A stretch of DNA of 64,000 nt. It comes from Stegostoma tigrinum (Eukaryota). Numbering within the stretch: position 1 is the first letter of the stretch; each line of letters starts with the position of its first letter. A program made the position numbers and the translations under genes. Location of the stretch: contig NC_081376.1 in assembly GCF_030684315.1 (NCBI RefSeq), positions 20,937,018 through 21,001,017 of the forward strand, read 5' to 3'. The notes under the pieces were generated by a model. The model did not search any database, was not told the origin of the DNA, and worked only from the letters and a program-made list of their open reading frames with translations. Positions 1,827 through 62,886 of the stretch are shown here, in pieces.

Positions 1827-2041
1827 AGTGTGCAATGCTAATGCTGGAGTCTGAGATAACACAGTATGGAGCTAGAGGAACACAGCAGGCCAGGCAGCAT
1901 CAGAGGAGCAGGAAAGCTGATGTTCCGGGTCAGGACCCTTCTTCAGAAATGGGGCCCCATTAAGCCCGAAAGGTCAGCTTTCCTGCTGCTCTGATGTTGC
2001 CTGGCCTGCTGTGTTTCTTTACCTCCACACTGTGTTATATC
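1827..2041. mobile_element. Penelope-derived hairpin mini-element (family A) with 10-bp TSD
   Basis: Inverted arms gataacacagt...actgtgttat (1855-2039) made of pLTR sequence. ctacagggta is duplicated at 1817-1826 and 2042-2051. Confidence 0.75.
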
Positions 2042-2302
2042 CTACAGGGTACTGTAGTAACATGACAATTTCTTAAATGGATATTGAAACACAAACGTTC
2101 AACTGAGTTATCAACTAAATTCTAGTTGACACCTTGTTCAGTACCCCACATGTTCTTTTCAAATGTAACAGTGCCTCAGATTTAGAACTTGATCTTTTAA
2201 CTTTTGTTTCCAATGTAAAAATATAAATCTTGGGAGAATGTGTCTGTGCAGATTTCCTGGAAATCAAAAAGATTTAATGTCTGATTCTGCTTATGTGCAC
2301 AG

Positions 2303-2518
2303 GGCGCGTTCTGGGGCCTCCTCACAGGGATCCTGGTTGGTTGCACTCGAATGGTTTTGGACTTCATTTATCCAGAGCCTCTGTGTGGCCAACCTGATAA
2401 TCGGCCTCTGGTGACCAAGTATGTTCATTACCTGCACTTTTCCATCATCCTTTCTGTCTTTACATTGATTGTTGTGGTGATCATCAGTCTCAGTACAAAA
2501 CCTCCAGATCTAGAAAGG
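2303..2518 (+). CDS. SLC5A11: SLC5A11-like paralog A, 216-nt exon (TM12-TM13)
   Basis: AG at 2301-2302 and GTAAGT at 2519. Translation GAFWGLLTGILVGCTRMVLDFIYPEPLCGQPDNRPLVTKYVHYLHFSIILSVFTLIVVVIISLSTKPPDLER closely matches SMIT2 (LVLDFIY..P.C.QPD.RP..VK..HYL.FS.IL). Confidence 0.95.
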
Positions 2519-2831
2519 GTAAGTGATTCAATCATCTCAAATATTTCAGCTGGGCAATTCAGAGATGCCGATGGGCCTTGACCTACTTACTTTAAGGCAG
2601 CACAGCCTTGGAGACTACCTGCTGGAAGTCAAATAAACAAAGGATTGGATTGTAAACCTACTGAGATTGTTCCAGTTCAACGGAACCAGGGAGCATTTAC
2701 TTAAGCTACATGAGGGTTGTTGGGTATTCGATGATTTCTCCTTGTCATCACTGGAAGTGTTTAGTCACGATGCTGTTTTCATACCTGGCAATTTCGGATG
2801 TTCTTATTCAATCAAATCTAAGTCTCAAGTG

Positions 2832-2927
2832 CTCTCTGATGAAGGATCTAGGCCCGAAATGTCAGCTTTTATGCTCCTGAGATGCTGCTTGGCCTGCTGT
2901 GTTCATCCAGCTCCACACTTTGTTATC
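2832..2927 (+). mobile_element. ~95-bp Penelope family A 3'-end insertion (hammerhead motif and tail)
   Basis: CTGATGA-AGGATCTAGGCCC-GAAA-TGTC at 2836-2863. Flanking direct repeat atctaagtctcaagtg at 2816-2831 and 2925-2940. Confidence 0.85.
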
Positions 2928-3222
2928 TAAGTCTCAAGTGAGTGTGTTTGAGCAGTGAGAGAGTTAGATAGAGCCTTTTATGTTGATTGTATGTGTACTT
3001 TGTTTAATTTTTATGTGGGTAGAGGAATTCACTTGAGCTCTGTAAGTAGGCACAAGGGACAGGCCCATTTAGCAGACTGATAGAATCCCTACCTCTGGGC
3101 CAGTAAGCCTGGGTTCAAGACTCACTTTCTCCATCTCTGAACAGGTTGATTAGGAAACATCTTAAATAGACACAAAAACATTTTAACTTAGTCCTGTCCA
3201 CTCTTTCTATCTTTCTTCACTA

Positions 3223-3672
3223 TTGTTGTGATCGCACTGTGTACCTGACAGGCTTTGCACATAAATTGCTTATTTCGTTAGAGAGGTGGGTGATTTAGTG
3301 ATGGAGAATAAAAGAAAAAAAAGGGTGATTTGGTGGTGGAAAAAATGCTCAGTGGTGCATAAAATCATCTCAGGACAAAAAAGGTAGACACATAACCACT
3401 TTAATTTAGTTCCCTCAGTCTCTCCCTACCTTATTCCACTTTTGTTGGTGCGCTGCCATTTTGGGTAAACAGTGCAGTGCTCTCCATTAGACATGTGTCA
3501 TAACATCTCTGGAGAGGTTGCTTAGAAAACATCTCAATAGACACAAGCTAAAACTGTGGTTGTTGGGTTAGTAGACATATGCGTGTAATGTGTAACTCTG
3601 TCAATAAATATCAAAGTGTGTAAAGATTGGTTCCAGTTCTGTCTTTCACCAGCTGGTTTTTGGAATAGAATA
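3223..3672 (+). mobile_element. Possible solo LTR
   Basis: Starts TGTTGTGA, has AATAAA near 3603 and an LTR-like U5 end. Based on general appearance only. Confidence 0.3.
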
Positions 3673-4384
3673 TTTTGCTAATCAAAAAAATGAGAATGTC
3701 TCTGTCTCTGTGTAGTTGGCGAGTTTCAGTCTCATCCTGTTTTTATTTAGCTGCTTCCTCATTTTAAAAAGCAACCTTCCCATCAGTGACTCAAAACGGC
3801 AGATGCCTAAAGGAAACAGGAAGTTCAATATGCTTGACGGAACAGGCAATACTTGTCTTCACAGAAACAGATTTAACATTTCAGATCAACGATTTCTTTG
3901 GCATACTGACAAAAAATATTGGAGATCTCAGTGTTATTAAGCAGATAAGAGTCAAGGAAAGGAGAACAGTGGAGAAAAGTGGAAAAGGGAAGCTCAGCAA
4001 TAAGTTGGAAAGCAGGATAGATAAAATGGCCAAAATGTACGGCAGTGCAGAGTTGGATAATATGACTAGAAACTTAACAGGGAACCTGTAAATGGGAACA
4101 TCATCGCTTGTCCAAAAAAAGAATGAGGACTGGTTATGATCTAAAATTGTTGAACTCTGTAACAAGCCTGGACTGTTATAAAGTGCCCAAGCGAAAGGCA
4201 AGATGCTCTTTCCTCAAGCATGGGTTCGACTTCAGTAGATCTGCACAGATCAAGGACAGAGAAGTTAACGTGGGAGCAGAGCTGAAAAATAAAATGACAG
4301 GTGCCAGAAGCTGCCATTAGTTATAGATTTACCTCATTGATTCTCGAATTTCTTTCCATGTTGGCTGTGTCTGTGGTGCTATGA

Positions 4385-4580
4385 TATGGAGGTGTCAGTG
4401 TTTGACAAGGTGGACCAAGTCAGAAATCACATGATACCAGGATATTGTCCCAAGCTTTTGGATTACTGCTCCTTCAGCAGGTCAAATCATTTCACCTGAT
4501 TAAGGAGCAGCACTTCAAAAGCTTGTGATTTCAAATAAACCTGTTGGACAATAACTCGGTGTTGACTGATTTTTGTCTAT
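4385..4580. mobile_element. Penelope family B hairpin fragment with degenerate hammerhead motifs
   Basis: aagcttttggattactgctccttcagcagg faces cacctgattaaggagcagcacttcaaaagcttgtg, followed by aataaacctgttggac. Same family as 44063, 46388 and 56385. Confidence 0.65.
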
Positions 4581-5699
4581 GGTACTAGACCAGGATCAGC
4601 ATCTTAAAGACAAGGAAACCTATTTTAAAAAATTAGTCAAAAATGCAGAATCAGTAGAATTATAATCAATTACTCAAAAGATTAGCAACAAAAGAAAATC
4701 AAGACAGAGGGACATATCTGGATTTCTGTGAAACTCCAGTTAGCTGAGGTTCTTTCACATGCCCACAGAGAAGATGAAACAGTTTCTTTTGAAAAAAGAA
4801 ATCTGTTAATGTTGATATTCCTCCCAGTACGACTTACGAATGATGAAAAAAGTTCTGTTTCTTGTATCTTGTTTTGGCAAAGCATCCTGAAAGCAATACT
4901 TGATTCCATATTTACTTGAAATCAGTCATGCCTCTAACATCTGCAAGACATGGAAGATTTGAAATGTTAACATTGTTTTTGCCAATGCAAATACTGGCTG
5001 ATCTGCTGAGCGTGTCCGGCTTTCCATTTTAGATTTCTAGAATCTGCAGTTTTGTGTTTTTGCAATTGTAATGACTAGTTAGTTCCTTACTTATGCACCC
5101 GTCTGCATCTATGAGTGACTCACATGTTGAACTGGTGTATGTTACCTAAATCATTGATGAGAATCTGCGTGAAGTTATCAATGACTGTAACTCATTATTA
5201 CTATTGACCTAAGCAAGTTTTTCATAGAATTTGGTACATTTATGATTAAACTTTTCTCAAGTTCTGTTATCCTTTAAAATATCTGAGCAGATTTTCAAAA
5301 AGCTGATATTCTTTGTAAACTACAAACATATTTAGATAGCCATTGTCTAAAAATTGATGGAGGAAGACTAAGTTTGTTCAGTTAAAGTCAGAATCCGTAC
5401 AAGAGTCCTTTACTGTGCTGCATGGAGAGCCCTGCACTACAGTCTTTCAGTTTGGCTTTTTCAATGTAAAAGGTTTGACTGCTCTTAGAACCAGGAGAAG
5501 TTGCTGAACAGCATGTATTATTGTTGCTGTCAAAACTAAACAGTTCTGGAAAGAGAGAGAGCTAGAACTTGACTTATGACAAATAAACTTTGAAAAGGCC
5601 CCAGTTCTTGAAAACAATGTCAGCCAAGTGAATCCGATGTCAGTGGGGGTTCATTTAGGAGATATGGTGGAGAATCACATAATTAATCCAGAGTAATCA

Positions 5700-8600
5700 A
5701 CTGATCAAGAGCTGACTACAAAAGTGCAGGAATGGGGCTGGCGAGGATGGACTACAGTGAAAGATTACAAGGAAAAACAGTAACAGAGCCATCAGCTACC
5801 TTCAAAGAGAAGATGGTGCAGGTATAGTCAAGATATGATACCTCAAACAAATCTGGAGCTGCCTGGATGAAAAAGGAGACAGAAATTAAAATAAAGAAGA
5901 GAAAGTGTGCTTATGACAGGTATCAAATAGAAAACACAATTGAGATCTAACAGGGATAAAAAAGGTTCAGAGGGGAGGTCAAAAAACACATTAGAAAAAA
6001 AAGGAATTATGAGAAAAGACTGGCATCCAACATAAAGAATCATCTCAAAGTCTTCTAAAGGCATACAAATAGTAAAATCAATGGAAAAATGAGGAGTAGG
6101 ACTGCTTAGTTTCTAAAACTGGAATTGACAGTTGCAGGAAGCAGGCATGACCGAGGTTTTAAATGATACTTTACATTGACTTTTCATTGGCTACAGAGGG
6201 ATTGGACAGAGTAGTAGAGTGGGGAGAGTGTGGCAAAGAAAGCACAGATGGACTACAATGTGGGCAAGTGTGAGGTTGCGCACTTTGGTAAGAAGAATGA
6301 AGATGTAGATTATTTTCTAAATGGGAAAAGGCTTCGGAAATCTGAAGCAGGCAGGATCTTGTTCTAGTTCAGGGGATTCTCTTAAGGTTAACATGCAAGT
6401 TCATTTGGCAGTTGGGAAAGCATATGCAATGACATATTTGTTTGAGAATTCATGAGAATACAAGAGCAGGGATGTATTACCAAGCTGTATAAGGCTCTGT
6501 TCGGACCGTACTTGGAATATTGTGAGCAATCTTGGGCCCCTTATGTAAGGAATGATGTGTTGCTCTTGGAGTGGGTCCAAGGAGATTTACAAGAATGATG
6601 CTGGAGATGAAGGGCTTGTCATATGCAAAGTGGTTGAGCTCTCTGGGTCTGTACTAGTTGGAGTTTAGATGGATGAGGGGGAATCTCAATGAAACTTATA
6701 GAAGCTTGAAAGGCCCAGATAGAGTGGACATGGAGAGGATGTTTCCACTAGTAGGAGAGACTAGAACCCAAGGGTACAGCCTCAGAGTGAAGGAACAACC
6801 ATTTAGAATCGAGATGAGGAGGAATTTCTTCAGCCAGAAAGTAAAGAATCGGTGGGACTCAATGCTGAAGTGGGCTGAGAAGACAAAATCATTGAGTGTA
6901 TTTAAGACAGAGATAGATAAGTTCTTGATTAATAAGGGGTCAAGGATTATGGAGATAAGGCAAGCAGAATGGGGTCAAGAAATGTATCAGCCATGATCGA
7001 ATGGCAGAGCAGACTGGTGAAAGAGGAGGTAGCTCTGTCACTAGAATGATTTATAGTTGATAAACAATAAGTGTTGGATAGATTGTTGGTACCTAAAGTT
7101 GACAAGGCTCTGGAATCGAACTGGATGCATTCAAGGATATTGAAGGACGTGTGAGTGAAAATTGCAGGGAAACACTGGCCACAAGTCTTTCAGTCTTGCC
7201 TAGTCTCAGGGGGAGACTGGAGCATTGCAAATATCATGTCACTGTTCAAAACAGTCTGTAAGGATAAGCCCCGTGATCATAGACCAGTCAGTTAAACTTC
7301 AGAGCTGGGTAGGCTTCTAGAAATAATTATTTGGCATCGAATTAGTAGTCATGCGGTAAAAGGTGTATTGACTCGGAAGAGACAGCCTGGATTTCTCAAG
7401 GAGAAATCATGTTGAACTTACTTGTTGGAGTTTTTTTGATTAGGCAAGGGACAGAATTGATGAGGGTAATGCCGCTGATGTAGTGTACATGGACTTCCAG
7501 AAGGCATTTGATACAGTGCCACAGAACAGACCTGTAAGGAAAGTACAGCTCATGGAATATAAAAGATAATAGCAAGGTAGATACAAAATCAGCTGAATGA
7601 TAAGCAAGTACTGTAATGATCACTGGATGTTTTTTGGGCTGGAGGAAGGTTTAAAAAGGAGTTGCCCAGGTTTAATATTGGGATCCTTGCTTTTCCTGAC
7701 ATGCATTAATGATCTGAATCTTGGTGTGCAACAGACAATTTGTAGGTGATACCAAAACTTGGAAGAGTTATAAACTGTGAGCAGGACAGTGTAGAACTTC
7801 AAAAGGCTTTGACAAATGGTTGGGTGGGCAAACAGATAGCAGATGAAGTTCAATGCAGAGAAGTGTGAGATGATGCATGTTGGTAGAGGGACAGGAGACA
7901 ATGGGGGATACAATTCTAACAGGTATGCAGTGCAAAGGGACCTGGCTGCATATGTGCACTGATCACTGAAGGTGGTAGGACTGGTGGAGAGACCAGTTAA
8001 TAAAACATGGCCTTATTAATAGAGGAATACTGTAAAAGAGCAAGGAGGTTATGTTGAGTTTATGCAGGACACTTATTTGATCTCAGCTGCAGTATTGTGT
8101 ACAGTCTGTGTGACACATGATAGAAAGGATGTGAACACATTAGAGAGAAAACATTCCCTTTAAATTATGTGTCTGTGCAGCTGTGCAGACACTCAGAAGT
8201 CCCAGGTATGCCAATCAGTGTGCTGTGCGTTGAATCCCGCACAAGTTGCTGCTACACATGGACACTGGAGGTCTGTGCAGTGGACAAACAAAATTAGAGG
8301 AATGTAGGTTGTGTGACCAAATTGGAGAGGTTAGGAGTTTGTCCTTGGAGCAAACGATGCTAGCACTAAATGTTTTCAAGATCATAAAGGAGCTGGATGG
8401 AGTAGATAGGGGGAAACTGTTCCCACTCATAATTAGATCAAGAATGAGAGGGCACAGATTTAAAGTGATTCACATAAGCACACATGGAAGGAGAGAAAAG
8501 TTTTTCATACAGTGAGTAGTTAGTGTCTGGAATGCACTATCTGGAATTTGGTGGAAGCAGGTTCAGCTGACACATTCATGAAGGTACTGGATGAGTATAT

Positions 8601-8725
8601 GAATAGAAACAATGGAGGAAAAGCAGGAGAATGACACTGTCATGATGTTTGTGTGGAGAGCTGATACAGAGACAAAGGACTGAATGGTCTCCTTCTGTAC
8701 CATAATACTTATGGGATTCTGTGAC
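5700..8725 (+). mobile_element. Decayed CR1 LINE ORF2, interrupted by a nested CR1 3' fragment (~6188-7015)
   Basis: W.IAN...LFK near 7218, RPVS near 7281, DVVYMDFQKAFDTVPH near 7477 and a CR1 3' end near 8680-8725. The nested piece has its own ORF2 end (6658-6996) and 3' tail. Confidence 0.85.
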
Positions 8726-8729
8726 ATCT

Positions 8730-9640
8730 TGTTTATTTATTTATTCATGGCATATGGATATTGCTGGTTAGACCAGCATTTACTGCCAATTCCTAATTAC
8801 TCTGGAGAAGAGCAATGAGCTTCCCTCTTGAACTCTGCAGATTGAAGGGTGTAGGCTCCTCCTTAACACTGTTAGTAAGGGAGGGTCATTGATGAAGCAA
8901 TTAAAGATGGTTGGGCCTAGGACACTATCCTGAGAAACTCCTATAGCAATGTCCAGGAGCTGAGTTAACTGACTTTAAACAACCACACCATCCTCCTTGT
9001 GAAAGGAACGATGCCAGCCAGCTGAGGGATTTCCTATTGATTCCTGTTTTCTAGAGGTCTTTGTTGCCACACTCGATCCAATGTGACCTTTAAGTGAAGG
9101 ACAGTCAGTCTTATGTCACCCCTGGAGTTCAGCTTTTTAATTTATGTTTGGACCAAGGCTATAATGAGATCAGGAAGTGAATGGCACTGGTTGAACTGAA
9201 TCTGAGCATTACTCCTTTTCAGGTGCTGCTTGATAGCATTGTTGACAACCCCTTCCATCACTTTACTGATGATAGAGAATGGACTGATAGGGCATTAATT
9301 GGCTGCATTGGATTTATCCTGCTTTTTGGGCACAGGACATACCTGCGTAATTTTACCCGTTGTCGGGTAGATGCCAGTGTTGTAGCTCTACTGGACCACA
9401 TTAGCTAGCAGCACAGTTCTGGAACACAGGTCTTCATTACTGTTACTGGAATGTTCTCAGCCCATAGTTTTACAGTAATCACTGTCTTCAGCTGTTTCTT
9501 GATTTCATGTAAAATGAATTGGTTGAAGGCTGGCATCTGTGAAGCTGTGTATTTCGGAGAGGGCGGTGCAGGAGCTGAGATGGATTATCTACTTGGCAGT
9601 TCTAGTTGATTGGAGATGCTTCAGCTTTTGTCTTTTGCAC
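8730..9640 (-). mobile_element. Old LINE remnant sharing its 3' tail with SacSINE1/Deu-type SINEs
   Basis: Degenerate reverse complement of the agggatgggcaataaatgctgg tail at ~8745-8800, followed by decayed RT-like sequence. Confidence 0.55.
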
Positions 9641-9645
9641 TGACC

Positions 9646-9930
9646 TTGGAGGCAATGATGTAATGTCACTGGACTAGAACTATGCATTGGTATTCTGGGG
9701 AACATGGTATCAAGTCAAAACATGGCTACTGGCGAAATGTTAATACAATGGAATTCTGCATCTTAAAAACTGACTGCGTAGCCACTGTCATTTGTCATAA
9801 AAACTCCTCTAGGTCCCTTTTAGTAAAGAAGATGTGCTATCCTTAACTGGCCTGCATGTGTGTTCAGACCCACAGTAATGTGATTGACTCTTAACTGTCC
9901 TCTGGACATTTAGGGATGGGCAATAAATGA
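9646..9930 (+). mobile_element. SacSINE1/Deu-type SINE, degenerate
   Basis: tRNA-like head (gtaatgtcactggactag), core agacccacagtaatgtgattgactcttaactg, tail tagggatgggcaataaatg. Confidence 0.6.
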
Positions 9931-11499
9931 TCAAAGAGAAACACATATGTTGGGCTCCTCATTGTTGGTATTTATAGAGCCTCTACCCCCTGAAGGTTGA
10001 TTAATTATCCACTTCTTCTCACATGGTGCAGTGACTAGAAACCACGACACAGAATCTGTCAAAAGCCAACTGCCTCTGTTTCTGTCATTGTTAAAAAAAG
10101 AATCAAAGGAATAAAAGATGAAAGCAGGTTAACTTGATCAGCACAATTTTACAAAGTCATAAATAAGTACAATTTTAAAGTCAGAAGTTTTCAAAAGAGA
10201 CAAATATTGGATCATTTCAAAGACTATTTAAACAAGCAATGATACCTTGTTAAATCCACCTAAACATTTTAAAAATCTGATAAATTGAGTTTGAGAAAAC
10301 GTAACAAATCTACTTATGTCCAACAGGGTTTTGGAAGTTCCCTATTGGTATATTTGTCCTTATTAAAGATTCACAAAATGAGAGAACTCCCACAAAAGCC
10401 AACATTTTTCAAACAGAGTAATTTGTGAGTGGGCATTTCGATCTGCAGGGTGGCTGATGACTGATACCATGAAGCTTCTGGAGAACTGGAGGGTGGCCCC
10501 CTGTAACTTCTGGATTTACACACCGGAATGCTCATGTAAGTTGCCGGGCCTCTCCACCATGTCCGTACAGTTTGAAGGCTTGGTTGTCATTGCTTCAGTA
10601 AAATCGTGGCCAATAACTAATATCGTTGTCATGAGAGACATTGCTTTTAATTCCATTTGCTTCTGGGCAGGTAGATAGTGAAGTGAGTTGAAAAATGTTC
10701 CAGAACTGAAACCCAGGCCACTTTAACTCCAAAGTTGCATTCAAATTCCCATTGGTTGATTTTCCAGCAACTCTGGATGGAAAAGCAGTGGAAAATGACA
10801 TGATCCTGTTGTAAGGCCTAGGACCAAGGACAAGTGATCTTCTCTTCTTCCTATTTCTTCTGGTCTTCAAATTGAGAGGCAGATTGACTCCACTTTGATA
10901 CAAGGTCGACAGGTTTCTGATCCTCTATCTGGCGTGCTGGCCTGGGTTGTGCTGTGAACATAGATCTCACTTGATACAGAACAAGAGGCTTAAATGTTCC
11001 TGGTGAGGTCTTAAGGGGCCTGACTGGCCCTGATAGGCTTTCACTAGTCAAAACTTTAGGTCAAATTCCCTGCTGAAACTTCAGTGAAAATTATCATTGC
11101 ATCTCATGGGGACCTGAAATATATTTGTGAAATAGAACGATATTTGTTGCCTCGGTATCCTTGCCCAGTATAGAAGGTTGAAATGTCATACAGTGGAATC
11201 ATGACTGCTTCGGGTTTGAGAGTACCTCAGACAATTTTAACTGCCCATTCCTTCCAGATTCTGCTGGGCAGTTCAAATCATCCTTTAGATCTTTTTTGAT
11301 TTTTAGGAATGTCTCCACAACTTGGAATGGATTCAATACACCTGAAATAAGTCTCTGGCAATTCTACTGCAAAACATTCTTCCTGGCTCTGAACTATGGA
11401 GCAGGGCTACATAAGTCAAGGTGAGCAACTCTCACAGTTGGAAATATGCAGACATTGTAAACTGGGCCTGATTCATTGAAAGTGTATGATCTTTAACAT

Positions 11500-11860
11500 T
11501 CCTTCTTTCATGGGATGTGGTCATTCTGGTGAGGCCAGCATTTGTTGCTTATCCTTAACTGTCGTTTAATTAAGGAATTTGCGAGGATGTTTCAGAGAGC
11601 AGTTAGGAGTCAACCACATTATTGTGGATCTGGAGTCACATGCAAGCCAGGGACATAGGGGGACTTGCCAGTGACACAAGGTGGACTTGGGCAGAAATTA
11701 AAAAATCATATGGTTCTTTGCTTCGATCAAAGATAGTTTCATGGTCACCATTACTGAGATTCTTCAGATGTCAGATTTATTCATTCAGCCAACTATTTGT
11801 CAGAATTTGTGATCATGTCCCCAGAATATTATCTTGGGTCTAGTATTGCAACCACCATCA
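11500..11860 (-). mobile_element. SacSINE1/Deu-type SINE, degenerate
   Basis: Reverse complement of the same tail and core as 9646 and 26325 (gagtcaaccacattattgtggatctggagtcaca). Confidence 0.6.
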
Positions 11861-12012
11861 TCCCAACAGCTATTCATATATTTTACCGGGGGAAAGTCTG
11901 CTTGATGTGTCCAGTTAACAAGAGTTCTTGTTTGAAATGCCTAGCCAACATTAACCACAGCAAAATTAGCATCCTCGTATGTTGTGCTATAACCTTTCTT
12001 CTCCAATCTTAG

Positions 12013-12079
12013 ATTAGCCGCTTGACCTGGTTCACCCGTTTTGAAAGAAACAATTCTGTAGTAAAACAGCCTGATGAAG
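12013..12079 (+). CDS. SLC5A11: SLC5A11-like paralog A, 67-nt exon (start of TM13-TM14 loop)
   Basis: Pyrimidine tract and AG at 12011-12012. Reads ISRLTWFTRFERNNSVVKQPDE (SMIT2 VSHLTWFTR). Strong AAG/gtaagc donor at 12080, phase 1. Confidence 0.9.
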
Positions 12080-12677
12080 GTAAGCTACATGTCAAGGAAC
12101 TGCTAACATGAGCAAAATCACACTTTCAAGGAAGAAGTCCTTGACGATCATTGCAATGATACATGATATACTAGAGGCAGAACAAAAACCATACCCCTGA
12201 CATGAATGCAACACAGCTATAATTATGTACAAGTGTAGCAACTACCCAATGTATAGGGCAATTTGATGTGATCTAAGGTAAGCCTTTCTTTCTGATGTAA
12301 TGCTGCATCAACATGATAAGTTATGATTTAGTACCTTCCAGATGCAGGAAAGAGAATCATGTATGTTGTTTGGAAACTGTTAAAGAGTTCTGTGTCTCTT
12401 AGAGATGCACAACTCTCTCACTAGTCTGAGCAGTGGATAATGCAGAGCTTATGGTACCCCCCTGTCTTGGGAAACAATTGCATCAAGAAGGAATGTCCTT
12501 TCTGTGTAGAACATTCTCTATTGTGGCTGTTAAAAGCTGATTCATGCGTCAGTTCCACCTGCAGATGTATTGGACAACTGATGCTTACTCCTTCTGGCAG
12601 GCTCACTTTTCTGCCATCCGCTGGTTTCTTTTGTCCTTTGCTCTCTCTATGTTCTTCCTGACTGCTCATCTCCAGGC

Positions 12678-12777
12678 CTGAGACACTGCGAACGCACAGA
12701 CTGAGACACTGCGAACGCACAGACTGAGACACTGCGAACGCATAGACTGAGACGTTGCGAACACACAGGCTGAGACA
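12678..12777. repeat. 23-bp minisatellite, ~4.3 copies
   Basis: Unit ctgagacactgcgaacgcacaga at 12678, 12701, 12724, 12747 and partially at 12770. Confidence 0.95.
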
Positions 12778-13073
12778 TTTTGCCTTTGGTCATGGTGCAT
12801 AATGTTGCCAGGTTGAACAGTTTGCTGTCACTCTGCCTCCTGCAGGTGGTTAACTTCATTTGAATTAGCATAAGTGTGAATGTTAGAGTATATCATTATC
12901 ATTTGGGAACTTAGATTCTAAAGTAAAAGTAAATGAGATTTTGGTTTTAGTTCTGGGAAGGTGAAATTTTTTTATGCGCTCATGGTATCATTGCCATTTG
13001 TAGCTTGTCCCTAGTTAGCCTTGACCAGGTTACGAAACAAAAAACAAGAATGGCAGTTGCTGGGAAATCGTTG

Positions 13074-15394: not shown

Positions 15395-15486
15395 GTAGAC
15401 AATCCAGCAGGATTATTGATTTGGTGCACAATGCAACAGGATTGTAACTGAGACGTAATGCTGTCACCAATTCTGCTCTCTCCCAG

Positions 15487-22565: not shown

Positions 22566-22589
22566 AAAGGAGAAGAGCTCTGTCCAACT

Positions 22590-51978: not shown

Positions 51979-52293
51979 ATTAGATCAGATTCCCTACAGT
52001 GTGGAAACAGGCCCTTCAGCCCAACAAGTCCACACTGCCCCTTGGAGGATCCCACCCAGACCCATCCCCCTATAACCCACACACCCCTGAACATTAAGGC
52101 AATTTAGCATGGCCGATCCACCTAGCCTGCACATCTTTGGACTGTGGCAGGAAATGGGAGCACCTGGAGGAAACCCACGCAGACACAGGGAGAATGTGCA
52201 AACTCCACACAGACAGTCACCTGAGGCTGGAGTTGAACCTGGGTCCCTGGTACTGTGAGGCTGCAGTGCTGACCACTGAGCCACCATGCCATC
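51979..52293 (-). mobile_element. HE1-type SINE
   Basis: Colinear with 20636-20930. Confidence 0.9.
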
Positions 52294-52469
52294 CTACTGC
52301 AGGAGGCCTCAAGGCTTTGTCTGTCTAGAACTGCTTGACATGATCATTAGATAACAGGACAGCCCAGTTAACAGAATGCTTCGACCTCAGCTGCTGCTGT
52401 TGGGGTAGCACATAGTTCCAGAAATGTAAACTTTAAACTTCAGGAGCAAGAAAGTGGAATGAACGAAGA

Positions 52470-52710
52470 ACAAAGAAAATTACAGCACAGGAACAGGCCC
52501 TTCAGCCCTCCAAGCCTGCGCTGATCGAGATCCTCTGTCTAAGCCTATCATCTATTTTCTAAGGGTCTGTGTCCATTTGCTCCCTGCCCATCCATGTACA
52601 TATCCAGATACATCTTAAAAGACGCTAACGTGTCTGCGTATACCACCTCCGCTGGCAACGCTTTCCAGGCACCCACCACCCTCTGCGTAAAGAACTTTCC
52701 ACGCATATCT
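52470..52710 (-). mobile_element. CR1/HER1 LINE 3'-end fragment
   Basis: acagcacaggaacaggcccttcagccc...ttccaggcacccaccaccctctgcgtaaagaac, a typical CR1 3' end in reverse. Confidence 0.7.
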
Positions 52711-52959
52711 GGTGATCATTTAATGGTGATCATTGTGAATATATTTCACTTGTGAATACATCAAAAATATATTGTTTTGCTGGATTCAAATGTATGTAAC
52801 CATAATTTTTCAGGATCTTGGTAATGGGACAGCTAAATTGAATGGCAAGCCTCATGGTTGGCATAATTTGCTGGTTCCAAAGGAGATAAGGACTTTGCAT
52901 TTATTTGTGAAGGAGATAGTTTTCAATTACATGAATCTTCAAAGAATATTTGCTTACGT

Positions 52960-54070
52960 TTGTGGTTTTGTACTTGCTAGTCAATGGATCGTGGCTGAAG
53001 ATGCAGATTCAGCTGCAACTCACTGTCCCACACTCCATTAATGTCCTTTTATGTTCTAAAGCAGATTGCTGCTCACTATGGGTATAACTCAGGTGCACCT
53101 TGAAGGTGGAGCTGGATGAAATTAATCAGTATATTTCTGTCCAAGTGTAGGGTAGGCGTGAGTTTGGGGAACAAAGCTCCACTGCCTGGTTTATTCTGGG
53201 TGGTAGAAAGTGCTGGTTTTTGGTTAATTTGCGAAGTAGAATGGTAGGCAAGCAGCTACATTGCAGGAAGGTGAAGAAGTTCTGGTGATGGGATAATGGC
53301 AAACAGTGTACCTATAATGTCCTAGAATCCTGTGCACATCTCTCCACAGCCTGGCATCCATTAAAGGGTTATTCATGTCTACTGCCTCCTCCTCAAGCTC
53401 ACATTCAATTCATCTTCAATCAGGGAGAAGTGATTGCTCCTCATTCCATTCCTGTTGTAACATTTGGGGCGGTTGCATGTCAGGTTTTGCATTGTCCAGC
53501 TATCATTGTGGTGTGTCTTGCAGAGTATGTCGATCAGTCAAAGCAGTAGAGGCTGATTTTATGTAAGGCAATGGTATGTTCAATGGTTGCTGTGGCGAAG
53601 GTATGAACGTGATTGTACAGCTCTTTTATTACACTCATGAGATGCATCACAGGTATCATCGAGCATGTCTGGAGTGGACAGTCCATATCACCTAGGATCC
53701 AGCCGTTAGCCCGGGCAAGGACTAAAAATTCTTGATGGCGCAAGATGAATGCATCGTTCCAGCTCCCTGGGAAAGATGCACACACCCTTCAATGATCCGT
53801 CACCTGTCATCTCCAATCAGCTGTATGTTTAAGAGGTGCAATCCTTCACAATTCACAAATGTGACTTGGAAATATATCACCATTCCTTCACTGTCACTGA
53901 ATTAAAATCCTGAAATTCCCTCCCTAAGGGCATTGTGGGTCTACTTACAGCATATAGACTGCAACAGTTCAAGAAGACAGCTCACTATCACCTTCTCAAG
54001 GGCAACTGGGGATGGGCAATAAATGCTGGCCAGCTAGCAATGCCCACATCCCACGAATAAATAAGAAAAA
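52960..54070. mobile_element. Old LINE fragments (minus ~52960-53790; plus-strand 3' end ~53860-54070)
   Basis: Decayed RT-like sequence. Tail ctcaagggcaactggggatgggcaataaatgctggcc...cccacatccc. Confidence 0.55.
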
Positions 54071-55249
54071 CATACACGGCTGGTCCCAGGGATTGCTAAT
54101 AGTCACAAGTGTAGTCTGTGACCTCTTAATTTGATTTATTTATTGTCACATGTATTTTTTACAACATACAGTGAAAAATGTTGCAGAGTGTCACCACTCT
54201 TCGACGCCATGTTAAAACACAGAAAAATAAACCAAAAGATAGAACAATAAAGGTAGAAAAATAAAGAAATAAAGGAAAAGTGTTCAACACCACAGTTCTC
54301 CTGGTTACGTTCTCCACCATGGGCCATGGGCCTAGTGACCAGGCATGAGTTCGTTTTGCCATTCCACCACCGCTGGAACTAAAGTTGCCACGTTTCAGCG
54401 CCATCTTGCCTCTACCAACCCCCTCACTAGCATCTGGCTGCCATCATCTGTGGAGAAATGGATAGAGATATTGGCATGATGGAAGGGAGCATTGGTCACC
54501 TCATTTATTCACCGATATCTGAAATGAGACACATCTGTCACCGGTGAATCCACCACTGGTGAAGAAACTGAGCACCTCAGTGCCCTTGACTGCCTCTGGC
54601 ACAGGGCTCCTACCAAATCTACACAGATGCAGGTCTTGCTGAAGATTCCACATTGTCAGTGACTGTTTCCCAGTGCATCGTCAGGTTATTTTTGTAATGC
54701 TCCTCCAACAACTACATACGGTTAGATCTTCTCAGAGAACTGTCAAGAAGTCCGTTGTCGGAGAACCGCATTTCCGACACATCGTGACCAGGCAGGCCCC
54801 CGATGCTGCTGTCGGGACCTCTGTTGTCAGCTAACAACAGCTCTCCCCTTGTTGCATCCTTTCGAGCTGCTTCCAATATTTCAGCAATATTTGAGCCTCT
54901 TGGTTGTTTAAACAATCGAACAAATAATAGTGCATGATATCTTCAAAGCCCAATCCTGTGCCTTCCAGCTTCCTCCTGTTGTATCATGTATGCCGTCACT
55001 GCCCTAGGCCACTTAACATAGCCTTGTACTTTCCATCTGTAACTACACCCAGCACAATTGGCCATCCCCTCTCACAATTCCATGCACTCAAATACAGTCA
55101 TTCAATTCCTTCAATCCCTAACTTGTGCTTTCCAGTCCTGAGCCTCCATGTAAACTGCAATAATCCTGATCCTCTCCCGCGAAGTGCAGAGTTGAGCAAG
55201 GAAAACTGCTGACCTTAAACACAACTGCACAAAGCTGACTGGCTCACGG

Positions 55250-55437
55250 AGACAGTAGAAACTGCCGATGCTGGACAATCTGAGGTAACACGGTGTGAAG
55301 CTGGATGAACACAGCAGGTCAAGCAGCATCAGAGGAGCAGGAAAGCTTGACAGTTCAGGTCGAGACTCTTTTTCATAAACAAAGAAGAAGGGTCTTGACC
55401 CGAAACGTCAAACTTTCCTGCTCCTCTGATGCTGATG
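55250..55437. mobile_element. Penelope family A hairpin mini-element
   Basis: cagcatcagaggagcaggaaag...ctttcctgctcctctgatgctg inverted arms around two degenerate hammerhead motifs. Confidence 0.8.
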
Positions 55438-55674
55438 GGCTCATGTCTGTTTTGAACCAAGGCAAACCTGGTGCCCTGAGATTCTCATTCATCACTGACT
55501 TAATTGTGAGTAATCTTGACATAATTTTTGGAAAGCTTCAACACAAGAAGCATTCACAGCATGTAACTATATTTCGTGTAGGAACCTGCCAAGGGATGGT
55601 GTGAAACCTAACACACCGCAAACATGACACTGACTTAATTTCAATTCTTGCAGGCTCTAAAAATAACTGCAAAT

Positions 55675-55676
<2 letters not shown>

Positions 55677-55712
<36 letters not shown>

Positions 55713-55729
55713 ATACACACACACACACA
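55677..55729. repeat. (CA)n microsatellite with two interruptions
   Basis: Read directly from the sequence. Confidence 0.98.
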
Positions 55730-56060
55730 AAGGTACAAATTCCAACGCACCTAAAGAAATGTTTATGTGCACACATGCGCACAGTTGCACACGGACATAA
55801 GTAAAGATAGAAACAAAAACATCAATAAAGATAAAAACTTCCAATAAATATTCAGAAGACATGAGCATTTAAGCATTTAAATTAAAGACAGGTATGCACC
55901 GCTGTATAATTATGTGCAAGTATGCGGAAGATTGGAAAGTGCAACAGCACTGTGGATGCATATTTAAACTCTACACATATGCTCTCATATGTTCTCAATA
56001 TACACACTTTTTAATCATGTTTGTTTCAAAGATTTATTTCTGCTCTCTCTTTTCTGACAG

Positions 56061-56141
56061 GTGGGCTGGCTGCTGTTATATATACAGATGCACTGCAGAC
56101 AGTGATCATTCTGGCTGGATCGCTGACTCTCGCAATATTTG
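56061..56141 (+). CDS. SLC5A11: SLC5A11-like paralog B, coding exon 7 (81 nt); the gene continues beyond the window
   Basis: GGLAAVIYTDALQTVIILAGSLTLAIF (SSS signature GGL.AV..TD..Q). ctctcttttctgacAG acceptor, GT at 56142. Confidence 0.95.
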
Positions 56142-56468
56142 GTACATATAATTGAGTCTTTGTTACTGTTATGTGTCCTCATTTCCTGCATTAGAATTTA
56201 GGAAGATAATTCTCACAACAGTTAATTGGCATATAGAGGGGAACCTATCTGGTATTCTTCAAATCTCTGCCTTTTCATGAACCTCCCTTAGCTTAATGTC
56301 TCTGAAAGACTTTCCTTAACTCCAGAAGCTAGAATAACAACAATACCATTTGCAACCTTATGTCAGAGCATGTCTCTGAAAGATGTGAAGGTACTGGTGT
56401 TGGCCTGGGGTGGACAAGGTCAGAAATCACACAACACCATGTTATAGTCCAACAGGTTTATATTAAAT

Positions 56469-56503
56469 CACAAGCTTTCGGAGCTTCGCTCCTTCTTCAG
56501 GTG
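56469..56503 (-). ncRNA. Minimal hammerhead ribozyme motif in a Penelope family B fragment (~56385-56600)
   Basis: Minus strand CAC-CUGAAGA-A-GGAGC gaa GCUCC-GAAAGCUU-GUG. Confidence 0.65.
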
Positions 56504-57656
56504 TTAGTGGGAGAGGGAAGATCAGACACAGAATTTATAAGTAAATGATCAAAGGGTCAGATCACTGATCAGGATGTATTAAACAAGCCTGAGATGCTGC
56601 ATAACTGTTGACAAGAGCCGGAAGTGGGATTAGCAAAACAGTAAAAAGTTGTAATGATATCACTTAATCCCAATTTGGATTTATTCATGAGATTCCATTT
56701 TGTTTCAGATGGAAGTTCTGGCTGCTGGTGTTATTATTCAATTGGAAAATCAGACCAAACCTAAAAGTGACAATCAGGGGTAGGGGGAGCACAAATTCAT
56801 TCTGCATTTGTTACTGTTCTGCCTTTAAGGAGATGAAACTGTCACACCCCAAACCCATCTCTCTTAAACCTTATCGATAGCTCTCGCACTGCAGAGATTG
56901 CCTCTGTTGTGATTTCTCTCTCTTTCTGCTGCCCCTTTGTTTCGTCTCCCATTCTTAGGTCTTACACTCTCTCACACTGTTCTTTGTCCTCAGATTTTGA
57001 CAAATTAATCAAACTGAAAAAAAAACCCAGAGTTGTCAAATGGACTTCCAATAATCTCTCAATTTACACATTATTGCACAGTCAAATTCTGCTCTGTTTA
57101 TTGCTTTGGAAAATTTCAAAAAACATCTGTTCTCACAACCTGGCCGAATTTACTTTATTGTCCACAGCACAACAGGAACAGTTTTCTTTTCTGTGCTTTT
57201 TTTTGTAGCATTGGAATCCTGTTCTTATATACATTTGGTTTTGGCAAAAAGCATAAATTCTTGCTCATCCCTTTCTTCTATAGAAGCTTCTACTCTGCTT
57301 TATGATTTAGCTTCTCCTGGAATTTGGGTGTTTATAGGTCAAATGCAAAGCAAATAAGATCTTAGTACCACATCTGCCACTACTGCTACAGTACTGCATT
57401 TAACACTTCCCCTTTTGGAAACCATTATCTCCACAGTTCCAGAGCTACCTTTCTTCAAGATATGGAAAGAGCTGTCCAGTATTAAAAATTCATTTGGAAA
57501 GGCAGTTTTCAGTTGCTTCTAGATCTTTGCCCTCAGGATGATTATCTATTACCAATCATCATTCTCTACCTGCTTGTAAGGTATGAAACAGCTCTCAAAG
57601 CATATGTTTCATAAACCTCTCTACTAACTAAATGCAATAAAGCATTTCTTACTGTT

Positions 57657-57963
57657 AAAATCTCTACAATGTGGAAGAAGGCCATTCAGCCCACTGAGTC
57701 CATACCAACCCTCTCGTGATGTAAAATTTCTTTATATCCCACACAGACCAAAGCCCCTACCCTATCCTTGCATTTCCCACGGCCAATCCACCTAAGCTGC
57801 ACATTTTAGAACTGTGGGAGGAAACCAGCACACCCAGAGGAAACCCACACAGACACAAGCAGAATGTACAAACTTCACAGAGCACGTCGCCCAAGGGTGG
57901 ATTCAAACCTGGGTCCCTTGTGCTGTAAGGCATCAGCGCTAACCACTGAGCCACCGTGCTACC
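57657..57963 (-). mobile_element. HE1-type SINE
   Basis: Colinear with 20636-20930. Confidence 0.88.
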
Positions 57964-58750
57964 AATGTTCTTAAGAATGAAATGAAAACAGCTGAAGGAA
58001 TTTTCTAAAAGTTTATTCTGAATGATCTAACCATCCAGGCGTTCCAATTTCTGACTGAATTAAGGAACATCCATATCTGGCGAGATTTAGTAGCTCTGAT
58101 ACTTGGCAAGATTGACACAAATGCCTGCTGAAACTTTATTTAACACGTGCCAAATAAGATATAAATTTAAACAATTAACTTATTTATAGTTACTTGGTAG
58201 TACTGAACTTTAGAATTGCTAACAGGTATACTGTCAAAGCTTCTTATCCTGAGGCGGAATTGCAAGAATACCAAATTCCAGTTCCAAAATTTTGGTTTTC
58301 TTGTGATGCTATCCTGATGACAGCAAGATGAAAAGCTTTAACAGTTTTGTCTTCTTCCCAGAAATGCTCATACTTATTCAAAATACCATCTTAAGATATG
58401 TTCTTGAGGAAGAAGCTGACTCCCAACACAGCAAAATACAGTTGTAAAATCTAGTCCCAACTTCACATTTTCTTATGATAACATTAGAGACTAATTAATT
58501 TTAGAAATAAATGGATTTCCCACTGACTTATGAACCTAAACTAAAGGACCTGTTTTCTTGGTTTAAGACTTTTAGTATAATAAACCAACTAATATCAACG
58601 GAAATCAAATATTATTTAGCAGCCAATTAATATAGTGTAACAACGAAAATGTACTTCTGTATTAACTAAGGCAATCAATATACAATTCATAATCAAATAT
58701 GTTACTATAAGACAGGGCATGTAATGGCAGACTAAATTGAAAGCTACGCT

Positions 58751-58989
58751 AAGATAACAAGGTGTAGAGCTAGATGAATACAGCAGGCCAAGCAGCATCA
58801 AAGGAGCAGGAGGGCCGATGTTTCGGGTCTAGACTCTTCTTCAGAAATCAATTCTTCATTTTCTGAAGAAGGGTCTAGGCCCAAAACATCAGCATTCCTA
58901 CTCCTCTGGTGTTGCTTGGCCTGTTGTGTTCATTCAGCTCTACACCTTGTTATCTCAGATTCTCCAGCATCTGCAGTTCCTACTATCTC
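58751..58989. mobile_element. Penelope family A hairpin mini-element with degenerate 13-bp TSD
   Basis: Inverted arms 58752-58848 and 58860-58955. tgaaagctacgct at 58738-58750 versus tgaatgctacact at 58990-59002. Confidence 0.85.
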
Positions 58990-61900
58990 TGAATGCTACA
59001 CTGGTAGCTTTTGTGAGTATGGCTAGCGTTTCTGCAGAACCTGCTGTACCTGTGAGTTAAGCTTGTATGAAATCAGAACATTGAAAAATGTAGGAGATTT
59101 ACACATTTGAGTACATGATAGGTCCATTTGTGTCAGATAAAGAGGCATAAAAAATGATTGTCCTTTGAGAAATTAAATTAGCTCAATCCCTGATGTTGAC
59201 AACAGGCATGAATTTCTCTGTAGAGAAATTTCACTTATCTGAAGTATATTAAAACAGGGTATTGACCAAAATTGTTTAAATTGTAGGGTGAATTTAAATT
59301 GTCCTTTAGTCAATAGATCTGTTATTACTGGAGTGGTGTATAAATTACCTATTAACGATGTTGATTTCATACCAGGAAAAGGCGTCGTGAGAGATAAGTT
59401 GCTGCTGTCTCCAGAGATGGTAGGCAAGTCCATTGAAACTGACAATAAAGCAAAGAAGTGAATGATCTTTTGTAATCCTCCTGTAGAAAGTACTGTTTCA
59501 ACTAAAGATGTGTCCAAAGAATCAAAGCTCAGACTTCTGAGTGTAAAGTGGCAGTGGAATCAGATTGACAGCAAAGTGGTAAAATCAGCTGGAAATGAAT
59601 TAGGTCTGTCTCAATTAAACTGGCCTACAGATCCTCAGTCACCGATGTCAAAACAGAATGCAGCAATAAAGTTCCATGCTAATAGATGAACGAGTAAAGG
59701 CAATAATTAACTAAATCTTCTTTGCTGTAACGGTTGCTATTACTGTAGGGTTACATGGACAGACTTGAGTCCTAAATTGGAAAATGAAACTTCGAAGTTG
59801 AGAAGCGATGGCTCTTGTTCTGAAAGAACTGAACAAAGTTTGTTCTAAAGTGGAAAGACCAAATCACAGACAGATTGTAAAAAATAATGGAAATTTGGTT
59901 AAAAAGAAATATCAGGATTTTTATCCAAATATCAATGTAATCTCAACAAGATTCTTAAAGCAGCAAAGGGACCATAGTTATACATGTAAGAAAGATAACT
60001 GAATGGCTGGTAGCTGAGACAATTTTTATGTATGGACAATATAGAAAGGATATCTCTGAAAGAGAAGGGACATGTAAAGACTCAGTTAAAAATGCAACTC
60101 CCTGATATCACTGTAATTTATTGTGTTAATGAAGCACCGAAGAAAATATTGAATCCAGAGAGTAAATAGCATAACTACAACGAATATTTTCGGAGCCTAC
60201 ATTTTTCACCTCTTGGTACTCAAAAGCCAGAGGAACTATCAGAAATAAGTATCACTGTTTTTGACAAGATGAATCAACCAAGGATACAAATGACTAACCA
60301 AGGATATGGAAACAATGTGAACTTTAATCATCATGTGGAAAGAATTTGACAAATATTGTATGTCAGAAGGTGGAGCTGCTGGCTGCAAAACAAATCCTCA
60401 CATTTGAAAGAAGAAGAACTTTAAGAAGAAATATTGAGTGACTTAATATCCTAATTGTGACATGTAGTTGGGTTAATACAAAATATTGTGATGCTACCAA
60501 GATGTACTGTTTAAAAGAACATGTGACCGTGCGGGGATTGGGGAAAGGAGGGGAAGAATATTACTCATACTGTTTGTACTAAGTTGGTTGTTAAAGTGCA
60601 TCAAATGTTATAAGTTGTACTTTGAATGGTGTCTATGAAAACTCTTCACAATGGTAAAATTTTCCATTGTTCAGAGGGGGAGATATTACAATGATAAAAT
60701 TTGTAAGACTGCATCTTTAATTTAAGGTAAATATGAAAGAATGCTGTGATCTGTTCTAAAGTCTGACTGACAGCAAGGCTGGGTGGTTTCATTTCACATT
60801 AAAGACAGTCCTAATTGTTTACTGAGAAGAAGGGGTAAGGTGTAAGCCCTTAGAGATAATGGCAGGAGCCTGTGTGGTAAAGTGGACAGGCTGTGAGTTT
60901 CCGAAGTCCCAGAATGGTGATGAAAATATTGGATTGTACGTGAGCGTTCTTTAATCTGTCCATTTTCTTCCAAGATGAGAGAAAGTTAGGGTCTCAAGGA
61001 TAACTAACCAGCATTTATACATGGATATAAGGCCTCTATGATTTGTAATTCCATAAAGATGGGCTTTGAAGGGTAAGGATCTATGATATCCCTGAAAACT
61101 TATAAGAAAGGTTAATATTTCAGGATCCAGGACAGCAAGAGCAGCTATGGACAACATGAAGTTATGGTTCACCACACAGGAATATGGGTGAGATCTTGCA
61201 CTTGAATAAAACAAAGACTAAATTCATGAGGAGCTAAAACAAAGCTGGAGACTGGGACTAGTGAATGCTAGAAGAAAAATGTATGGGAGAGAAAACTCAG
61301 TGAAAGACAGTACTGAGATTAAAATTTCCCAAAGTGGGAAAGGAAGATCACAGAAGTCAACCTTTTAGGAGCTAAGAATCACCTTGGAATGATTCTGGGA
61401 GGAGTGAATAGCTACTTAAAGGATAGTAGAAAGTATTCTGTAAGAGAGATATTGGCCAAGTACAGACAGGTGAGACTAGTTTAGTTTGGGATTATGGTCA
61501 GCAAAGACTGGTTGGATCTAGGGTCAGTAGCTGTATTTTATGGCTCTAAACGTCTTATGCTTAAAAGAAAGGGAAATGCCCTATTTGTGTATAAGTTGTC
61601 TCCAAAGATAGTGTTTAGTCCATAGTGTTTTTATTTTCTTTTTATTGCAATATAAGTCTTAAAATATTAAATCTTGTTGTGTCATTTTTTTCAGCCATTA
61701 ACTGGAAGCTTGAATTTCTTTTTATAAATTGTCAGTTTCTACAGAGATCAAAACCATGTAGAAGTCACTTTTGACTTATCTCCAACTATCATTAATTCTT
61801 TCTTTTCAGCCTGATGCTCCTATGCCATTTGAAAAATAGAATGCTGAGTCGGTGACTCTTTGGACACATCTTTAATCAAAACATTAATTCTCGCGGCTGG

Positions 61901-62789
61901 GTTACAGGGATTCTTTTAGGTTATTCAGTTCTTCTTGAAAAACATCAGTTTCCACAGTCTCAATGGGCTTTTCTCAAACTGCTAAAGATGGTAGCACCTT
62001 ATCCCCAGTCAAACCATTTCCCAATAATTCAACCCATGCTGTCAATAGGACACTTACCAACTATTCCCACAATTACAGAACTACTAATTAAGCTATGCTC
62101 TAAATTAGCTCCATACAAATGACTGGGTATGCTATTCCCATTAATACCTTGCATCAAAATGCTTTTGTTTAACAAATTATCTGGAGGGACATTTCTGTCG
62201 CTTCCCAATATTAAAGATTGTGTTAATCCTGTAGATCTTAGAATTACAATTAGTTATCCTCCCTCATTAAACAGGAAAAAGAACACTTCAATTTTAAACA
62301 AGAAAAGTTTGATAATTTTCTGCACTTCAATCCACATTAGTAGTTAATACAAGAGAACACATCAGTTGGTCATCAATTTTACCCGCTGGACAGATTTCTT
62401 TTAAAAGAGTATTGAATGCCCTGACAAATGTCACAGTCTTGTTTTTTTTTAAAAATTCTAACATTTACCCTTCACATGTCATTTTCTTCACTGTAATCAG
62501 ACCTCTCGAATCTCCAGTTTGTCTATGATACCAAAAAGGGTTGTTTCTAACACAATTGTGAGTCAATCTTTAGTCATCTGCCATTACTGCAGCTTCTCTT
62601 AATTTAGAAACTTTCTGGTCTTAAAGGTGATGCTGTATTTTCACTGGCATCACCCTCTCCAAGGTCTTCAAAATCTGATTGAACATTCATTAAACCATAC
62701 CACCTATCAAACATCAGTCTTGAGGCAACTGTTCCCTAGTTCATTCTCTACAGCACAATGCTTTGAACAATTAACGTCCACCTGCCAAC

Positions 62790-62886
62790 CAGTCCAGTCG
62801 CTGAACTCAAAACATTAACCTTGCTTTCTCTTCACAGAAGCTGTCTGAGCTGCTGAGTTTCTCTAGCACTTTCTGTTTTGTTTCAG
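62790..62886 (+). mobile_element. Penelope family C terminal fragment, degenerate
   Basis: aaacattaaccttgctttctcttcacagaagctgtctgagctgctgagtttctctagcactttctgtttt. Confidence 0.5.

Follow-up and report, generated by a model that had tools for sequence, protein, structure and literature searches.

Analysis of a 64,000-nt stretch of the Stegostoma tigrinum genome (NC_081376.1:20,937,018-21,001,017, hereafter the window; genome size 3.2 Gb) and of the genome at large indicated that minimal hammerhead ribozyme motifs lie at the ends of Penelope-like elements (PLEs) and are copied with each insertion, while most copies are likely inert and any action of the motif is likely confined to the RNA of the element itself; taken as a whole we consider this account probable. 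It is carried by the position of the motif in the pseudo-long terminal repeats (pseudo-LTRs) of the elements, the covariation of its helices between lineages, its neutral decay after insertion and a pile-up of copy ends, all of which are observed. The window itself is ordinary for the genome. The hammerhead of PLEs has weak activity in vitro; in the one system that has been purified, insertion did not need it and RNA ending at the cut was not found. The ~190,000 copies form a base-level record of where element RNA starts and possibly of where it is cut, so that the role of the hammerhead in PLEs becomes testable from DNA alone.

Motif structure and copy number

The first-pass annotation, made from the letters of the window, had assigned the motifs to the minimal type I hammerheads of PLEs and sorted them by helix II into families A to D. 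The class assignment was confirmed; the core, the extra base before helix II, the G10.1-C11.1 pair and the palindrome were all found. The extra base and the G10.1-C11.1 pair are present in 12 of 12 representatives, and the 15.2-16.2 palindrome in unbiased DNA (n=166) is CG in 100 cases, GC in 4 and one of the CpG-decay forms CA/TG in 46, with no loop III. All 17 positions cited carry a copy of the named family within ~30 nt, several being minus-strand motifs that had been given by their low end. The helix II strings quoted are correct as consensus sequences, but as exact strings that of family A occurs once in the window and that of family C not at all.

Homology search of the window with blastn gave 24 motif arms (12 A, 5 B, 5 C and 2 D), all dispersed stubs and fold-backs; tandem units with a hammerhead each were not found in the window. 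The core is intact in at most 8 of the 24. Fully fitting motifs, with intact core, palindromic 15.2-16.2 pair and helix II of at least 4 bp, number four (19976-, 48478+, 50925+ and 56500-), the other 20 arms having a broken core (as at 4496, 16804, 40670, 44066, 46386, 55384 and 58863), a broken helix II or a CpG-decayed palindrome. Under a strict descriptor (intact core, helix II of at least 3 bp, helix I of at least 2 bp) 6 motifs are picked out in the window, while 12 dinucleotide-type shuffles gave 0-1 apiece. The Rfam scan of the window returned no hammerhead family and two chance matches, which bears out, for Rfam, the expectation that standard annotation would miss these motifs. The window had also been called dense; its 5 core-intact CG motifs in 64 kb (78/Mb) compare with 80/Mb in random stretches (48 core-intact motifs in sixty arbitrary 10-kb stretches, 600 kb), and the idea of a hotspot was rejected, motif density and tail counts being typical for the genome.

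A genome-wide search with the pattern CTGANGA-N11-19-GAAACGTH gave 191,993 matches, against 920 for the reversed pattern used as control. Since the pattern makes no demand on helix pairing, 191,993 is an upper bound for full motifs of the CG palindrome type. The genome density is ~60 core-intact motifs/Mb. One identical family A 31-mer has 89,060 copies, while exact strings of families D, C and B have only 108, 41 and 11, so that these families are older or rarer.

Covariation of helices I and II across families, for which a check had been suggested, was found. Over 12 hand-picked core-intact motifs all 84 of 84 cells are paired at 7 positions (two at the start of helix I, four in helix II and 15.2-16.2, all with standard pairs), the shuffle mean being 51.4 with none of 10,000 shuffles reaching the count; the 12 rows are related and hand-chosen and amount to about four to eight independent lineages. 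Pair counts on a MAFFT alignment gave 83% against 57% (0 of 500 shuffles) and exceeded all slid registers, with two family B rows one column off. A helix II of at least 4 bp with compensatory changes is present across families. The helices thus covary between families, and structure has been under selection between lineages. Helix I measures 3-5 bp in family B, 4-7 bp in C, 3-5 bp in D and 2-3 bp in A; among core-intact family A copies from random DNA it is 2 bp in 31 of 36 and never above 3 bp.

Folding predictions also separated the families. Relative to helix II alone, the predicted active dimer is favourable for B (-3.1 and -6.3 kcal/mol) and subfamily D1 (-12.3), marginal for C and D2 (-0.5 and -0.3) and unfavourable for A (+4.7 and +7.3). 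The A1 monomer is predicted to form a hairpin of -11.4 kcal/mol that pairs the core with the cut region and ends at +1. Some fold-back or jump junctions (loci L026, L035, L038 and L040) put GAGCT before the core and give family A an accidental helix I of 4-6 bp. Splicing that would extend the family A helix I, as in Drosophila virilis, was considered and is unsupported, the sequence having no acceptor at helix I and no joint being seen. A 2-bp helix I is present in the published minimal hammerheads of Culex, Drosophila and Oikopleura, at the low end of the published range.

Small hammerhead variants cleaving as dimers, the same motif class and dimer model, were reportedly described by Lunse, Weinberg and Breaker in 2016, who are said to have obtained ~150,000 hits over all genomes. 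In the literature searched, of which coverage was partial, no report of shark or other Chondrichthyes hammerheads was found and, with the same partial coverage, no report of cut-site footprints in PLE insertions. Within this coverage, what is new here is the scale, a near-clonal family with a 2-bp helix, a family D layout lacking untranslated regions (UTRs) and the cut footprint.

Earlier work has already described the minimal class itself, how abundant it is, its association with PLEs and the dimer model (PMC4209133). The hammerheads described there are alike in CUGANGA, one extra base, G10.1-C11.1, GAAA, palindromic 15.2-16.2, NUH, short helix I and no loop III, and equally in having more than one consensus family in a genome, copies that are for the most part single and dispersed, pairs on opposite strands, and a few copies in full elements. 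They differ in scale, as ~9,000 in Xenopus and ~4,000 in coelacanth were called remarkable under a stricter descriptor (PMC4209133) while the looser descriptor used here gives ~190,000 core-intact matches, about 20 times the highest single-genome figure in the literature compared (9,000, Xenopus). That paper stresses variability, in contrast to the single identical 31-mer that dominates here. A shark entry was not found in the searchable part of its supplement.

Elements that carry the motifs

In families A, C and D the motifs were found at the 3' end of frames for a Penelope-like reverse transcriptase (RT) and GIY-YIG endonuclease. The claim of at least four Penelope families is shown for these three; no link to an open reading frame (ORF) was found for family B, whose layout of stubs and fold-backs is the same as in the other families. 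RT followed by a C-terminal GIY-YIG in one frame is found in family A (L182) and family D (RT match, GIY-YIG similarity), and remnants were found in family C. The motif lies in flanking pseudo-LTRs with partial tandem and inverted arms, complete elements have one motif per end, and truncated stubs begin just before the core. The element features of the window are as follows, the family A motifs at 32020 and 40670 lying downstream of GIY-YIG frames.

31108..31791, plus strand: 3' part of family A ORF, with CX4CXXC linker and GIY-YIG endonuclease in a Neptune-type layout (PF01541, E 2e-4, just under cut-off)
32020..32047, plus strand: family A1 motif ~230 nt past the GIY-YIG stop, stem III palindrome decayed (CA)
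38878..40281, plus strand: older family A element with broken RT and GIY-YIG frames (GIY-YIG frame 39726-40281)
40670..40697, plus strand: family A2 motif at the 3' end of that older element, G8 changed
47833..51034, plus strand: complete dead family D insertion (Poseidon-type by similarity), sense in an intron of the second SLC5A gene
48478..48511, plus strand: fully fitting family D motif with 5 bp in helix I and 6 bp in helix II, including the ATG at 48484-48486; predicted cut 48511/48512
50925..50958, plus strand: family D motif, fully fitting, 2447 nt past the first, with the TGA of the ORF (50926-50928) within its core

Locus L182 is a near-intact family A element made up of an inverted arm, a first motif, the RT/GIY-YIG frame (in which there is a CX4CXXC linker), a 3' region rich in pyrimidines and, ~3.53 kb from the first, an identical second motif. 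Its Pfam matches for RT and GIY-YIG are both weak and under cut-off, and a PDB search with the family A protein gave no match. The linker before GIY-YIG reads C-NRRK-CYTC; a CX2-5CxxC linker at this place is a Neptune-type layout (PMC8557442), and it is present in family A and was not seen in family D. By linker presence or absence and by similarity, A and C are likened to Neptune/Nematis-type PLEs (PMC8557442) and D to the Penelope/Poseidon type, C being placed solely through the similarity of its endonuclease to that of A. Families A and C are related and have a downstream tail in common, and 4 of the 30 family C loci have A-like GIY-YIG remnants upstream of them on the same strand.

Several smaller features of these two families were noted. 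The family A ORF of L182 (minus strand, ~3830-3690) carries a low-complexity insert of 21-nt repeats (PPTADGT) between the N-terminal domain and RT. Selenocysteine read-through at a TGA 33 nt before the main A frame was rejected, as the tail frame shifts between copies. The family C tail (window 25897-25925) has a pyrimidine tract followed by CAG/ATG just past the predicted cut and resembles a 3' splice site; this tract is not in the A2 subfamily. Short internally deleted family A units (L087, L088, L094 and L097) join the 5' ORF start to the 3' region, one of them with two motifs 474 nt apart. Family A derivatives also occur in tandem, with three copies at 362-nt spacing (L184, G000:C1:49657969-49658693) and with 315-nt spacing (L185, C1:80047947-80048262); these are possible retrozyme-like arrays able to form cis dimers, L184 being known by its spacing only. 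The non-LTR retrozymes (Li et al. 2026, bioRxiv 10.64898/2026.07.22.740005) are likewise PLE-derived hammerhead units, comparable to the 362-nt three-copy tandem, but differ from the copies of the window, which are dispersed stubs and fold-backs without tandem arrays.

The family D insertion of the window is ordered as inverted 3' arm, 5' motif, broken 2445-nt ORF, 3' motif and tail. Its motifs are 2447 nt apart and the ORF runs from the ATG at 48484 to the TGA at 50928. A9, the extra base and G10.1 of the hammerhead together spell the ATG, as in the Anolis Poseidon element (PMC11167929), and in D1 the stop codon is the UGA of the core. Since start and stop both lie inside the motif, the unit consists of the 2445-nt ORF plus two bases, without UTR. 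In D2, the commoner subfamily (L082, L155 and L215), the frame reads through the core and stops (TAG) in loop II. Family D also carries CTTCATCAG, the reverse complement of a CUGAUGAAG core, ~10 nt before the motif (48455-48477 and 50902-50924; L001-L010), and judging from the sequence it could pair with the core as an inhibitory strand.

The closest comparison is with the Poseidon element PAc of Anolis carolinensis, for which protein-assisted cleavage is reported (PMC11167929). The two are alike in that the ORF starts at stem II, with the cut 28 nt past the start in family D and 26 nt in PAc, and in having two tail lengths after the motif. They differ in that the ORF of D also ends in the motif and has no UTR, while the pseudo-LTR of PAc extends at least 145 nt before the start (PMC11167929).

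Copy ends, dispersed copies and competing explanations

Among 109 young A1 arms in 1.22 Mb, 49 continue upstream and 60 are truncated. Starts of the truncated arms relative to the cut lie at -36..-23 in 34 (the core starts at -28), at -99..-37 in 5, at -22..-9 in 9, at -8..-1 in 2 and at 0..+6 in 10. The pile-up at -36..-23 fits an RNA 5' end just before the core, which would explain the short helix I. Genome-wide, 3,043 family A arms start at the cut, 394 at +1 and 162 at -2. Among 100 listed matches at the cut, 63 have a palindromic fold-back flank and 10 a microhomology flank; 26 distinct loci examined comprise 9 clean joins (to host DNA, untemplated bases or jumps to other element parts), 15 ambiguous joins and 2 artefacts. 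Extrapolation from 9 of 30 rows gives ~900 clean joins at the cut genome-wide, and perfect fold-backs at the AGCT just after the cut number ~670 (extrapolated from 22 of 100 listed) against 31 at the ACGT just before it. These counts speak for a genuine RNA end at the cut, or directly after it, in no more than a few percent of copies. Ends before the core and, more weakly, ends at the predicted cut may thus be a fossil hint of cleavage in vivo, a hint that genomic copy ends give here and that reads did not give for PAc (PMC11167929). Public RNA data, in the form of contigs putatively from RNA of another organism and with small matching shares, showed neither starts, ends nor splice joints and have no bearing on expression or cleavage.

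The first-pass annotation had inferred very many intronic ribozyme motifs; many they are, and in the window mostly intronic, but their activity as ribozymes is not borne out. Eighty-one young A copies, filtered for overall likeness, have a non-CpG mismatch rate of 3.3% for core and tail alike and 3.5% for helix II, and 44 of the 81 keep the full core and palindrome. Core-intact motifs in 482 kb of SLC5A-family gene bodies are 17 sense and 17 antisense, or 12:11 with helix filters. A same-strand partner of the same family lies within 5 kb for 12 of 104 core-intact motifs, and there are 33 fold-back pairs among 252 arms. The dispersed intronic copies are probably not active, and are probably inert passengers, because the core decays like the tail, strand bias is lacking and dimer partners are few.

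That such copies nevertheless work as ribozymes cutting host pre-mRNA, alone or in trans, and shape host transcripts genome-wide appears very unlikely to us. The density of ~60 core-intact motifs/Mb and the 44 of 81 young copies with full core and palindrome would supply the material for it, and the sense-strand D pair in an SLC5A intron, with its favourable predicted dimer (-12.3 kcal/mol), is by sequence the best candidate in the window for a live cis dimer. Against this stand the even strand ratios, the equal decay of core and tail, the finding that monomers gave no cleavage in the published assay (PMC4209133), and the frequent placing of stubs in fold-back pairs whose arms would anneal. 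A vertebrate that tolerates ~60 core-intact motifs/Mb in genes without strand bias argues that lone copies cut host RNA little. Chance matches, or motifs unrelated to Penelope elements, are practically out of the question and already refuted for A, C and D: the lack of an Rfam hammerhead match in the window and the missing ORF link of family B would agree with chance, but the 191,993 matches against 920, the location of motifs at ORF ends and the helix covariation across families contradict it.

For the element's own RNA the following course may be proposed. Transcription would begin a few bases before the core, and reverse transcription from the tail to the RNA end would yield the thousands of motif-plus-tail stubs and fold-backs. 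A minority of element RNAs would be cut after NUH, as a dimer held by the ACGU/AGCU palindrome, probably helped by the element's protein as for the Anolis element, since family A is predicted to be unable to fold the active form alone. Weak cleavage by dimers is a published precedent (PMC4209133). In family D a cut 28 nt past the AUG would remove the AUG. A fuller version is put forward tentatively, at somewhat below even chances. In it the dominant family, with its 89,060 identical motifs, its 2-bp helix I and a hairpin that buries its own core, would have its transcription start only a few bases ahead of the core; its RNA would be cut at NUH with protein help, and the cut ends would be written into hundreds to a few thousand insertion junctions. 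The genome would then preserve, in fossil form, the in vivo cleavage of a hammerhead unable to fold alone. In family D the cut would take away the start codon and so turn the RNA from message into template, and ligation would give a circle of 2,447 nt, all ORF but two bases.

A number of results weigh against cutting and against the account as a whole. The 1.22-Mb unbiased sample has no sharp peak at the cut (1 arm at 0, 9 at +1..+6), and 73 of the 100 listed joins there are palindromic or microhomologous, so that the true end may be anywhere from 0 to +4. The predicted A1 hairpin buries the core, the A1 active dimer is predicted to be unfavourable by 4.7 kcal/mol, and RT stalling at this hairpin, which ends at +1, could yield similar ends and is a live rival for those at the cut. 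PAc did not depend on cleavage in vitro, and none of its reads ended at the cut (PMC11167929). No ORF was found beside 11 picked family B loci or 50 blastn matches, and the strand test is small (34 motifs, one gene family) and sensitive to strong bias only. The hairpin, the unfavourable A dimer and the palindromic joins lend some weight to an explanation in which the family A motif is never cut in vivo and is kept as a promoter/initiator or as a protein-binding or packaging structure, with the NUH ends produced by RT stalling at the CUGAUG/CGUCAG hairpin and by AGCT microhomology. The 2-bp helix I of 31 in 36 copies, the main pile-up of ends before the core and the good proliferation of PLE clades without hammerheads (PMC8557442) agree with it as well. 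We nonetheless judge it unlikely, as lineages have preserved, through compensatory changes, the core, the G10.1-C11.1 pair, the palindrome at 15.2-16.2 and the two pairs that begin helix I, a 2-bp helix I occurs in the minimal hammerheads of Culex, Drosophila and Oikopleura, and the ~900 extrapolated clean joins at the cut exceed even the uncleaned counts at +1 (394) and -2 (162).

Other features of the window and the host genes

Two SLC5A-family (sodium/solute symporter, SSF) genes, tandem paralogs on the plus strand, extend into the window, the first with its 3' part and the second with its 5' part. By the exon map 21 of the 24 motif arms (13 sense, 8 antisense) are intronic in these two genes; the arms 16804, 19976 and 25867 have no gene placement because the first coding exon of the second gene was not found. 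The genes and the remaining motif features are listed below.

1..16055, plus strand: host gene 1 (SLC5A/SSF), 3' part, exons near 1-29, 2303-2518, 12013-12079 and 15844-16055
1919..1946, minus strand: family A motif with GGAA in place of GAAA, the left arm of a fold-back whose right arm, 1965-2041, is missing the 5' core
2836..2863, plus strand: family A stub beginning 4 nt before the core, stem III CpG-decayed, helix II broken
4496..4524, plus strand: family B motif, core broken, fold-back partner 4448-4487 (minus)
13140..13170, minus strand: degenerate family C copy found by blastn, absent from the first-pass annotation
14443..14472, plus strand: degenerate family C copy found by blastn, likewise absent from it
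16776..16804, minus strand: family C copy between the two genes, GAAA broken
19949..19976, minus strand: fully fitting family A variant with 3 bp in helix I and 4 bp in helix II, located between the SLC5A genes or in an unmapped first intron
25867..25896, plus strand: family C copy, core intact, helix II and palindrome decayed
28867..64000, plus strand: host gene 2 (SLC5A/SSF), 5' part, exons near 28867, 29021, 33735, 41931 and 56061
30305..30332, minus strand: family A1 motif with 2 bp in helix I and 3 bp in helix II, forming the inverted arm of a truncated young element
35739..35766, minus strand: family A1 motif that follows a GIY-YIG remnant and has an intact core but a broken helix II
44066..44094, plus strand: family B motif, G8 changed
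46386..46414, plus strand: family B copy, core destroyed
55324..55434: fold-back pair of degenerate family A stubs, 55324-55374 minus and 55384-55434 plus
56472..56500, minus strand: fully fitting family B variant with AGCU palindrome, 3 bp in helix I and 5 bp in helix II
58749..58958: fold-back pair of family A2 stubs, both damaged, motifs 58817-58844 minus and 58863-58890 plus
62790..62892, plus strand: family C copy, 5' core lost

The exon structure is alike in both tandem paralogs, and SGLT1 is the best PDB relative of an exon of host gene 2. Two intronless SSF-family genes lie in opposite orientation at G000:C14:21183970-21185286 and 21306502-21307818, and a putative formin FH2-like exon lies ~56 kb upstream. 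A long CT-rich low-complexity tract occupies 20729-22119, where open frames are spurious. Reverse transcriptase fragments of long interspersed nuclear elements were identified at 650-1450 (minus; RVT_1 match for 1019-1447) and 6658-6996 (plus), which we take to be of the CR1/L2 type.

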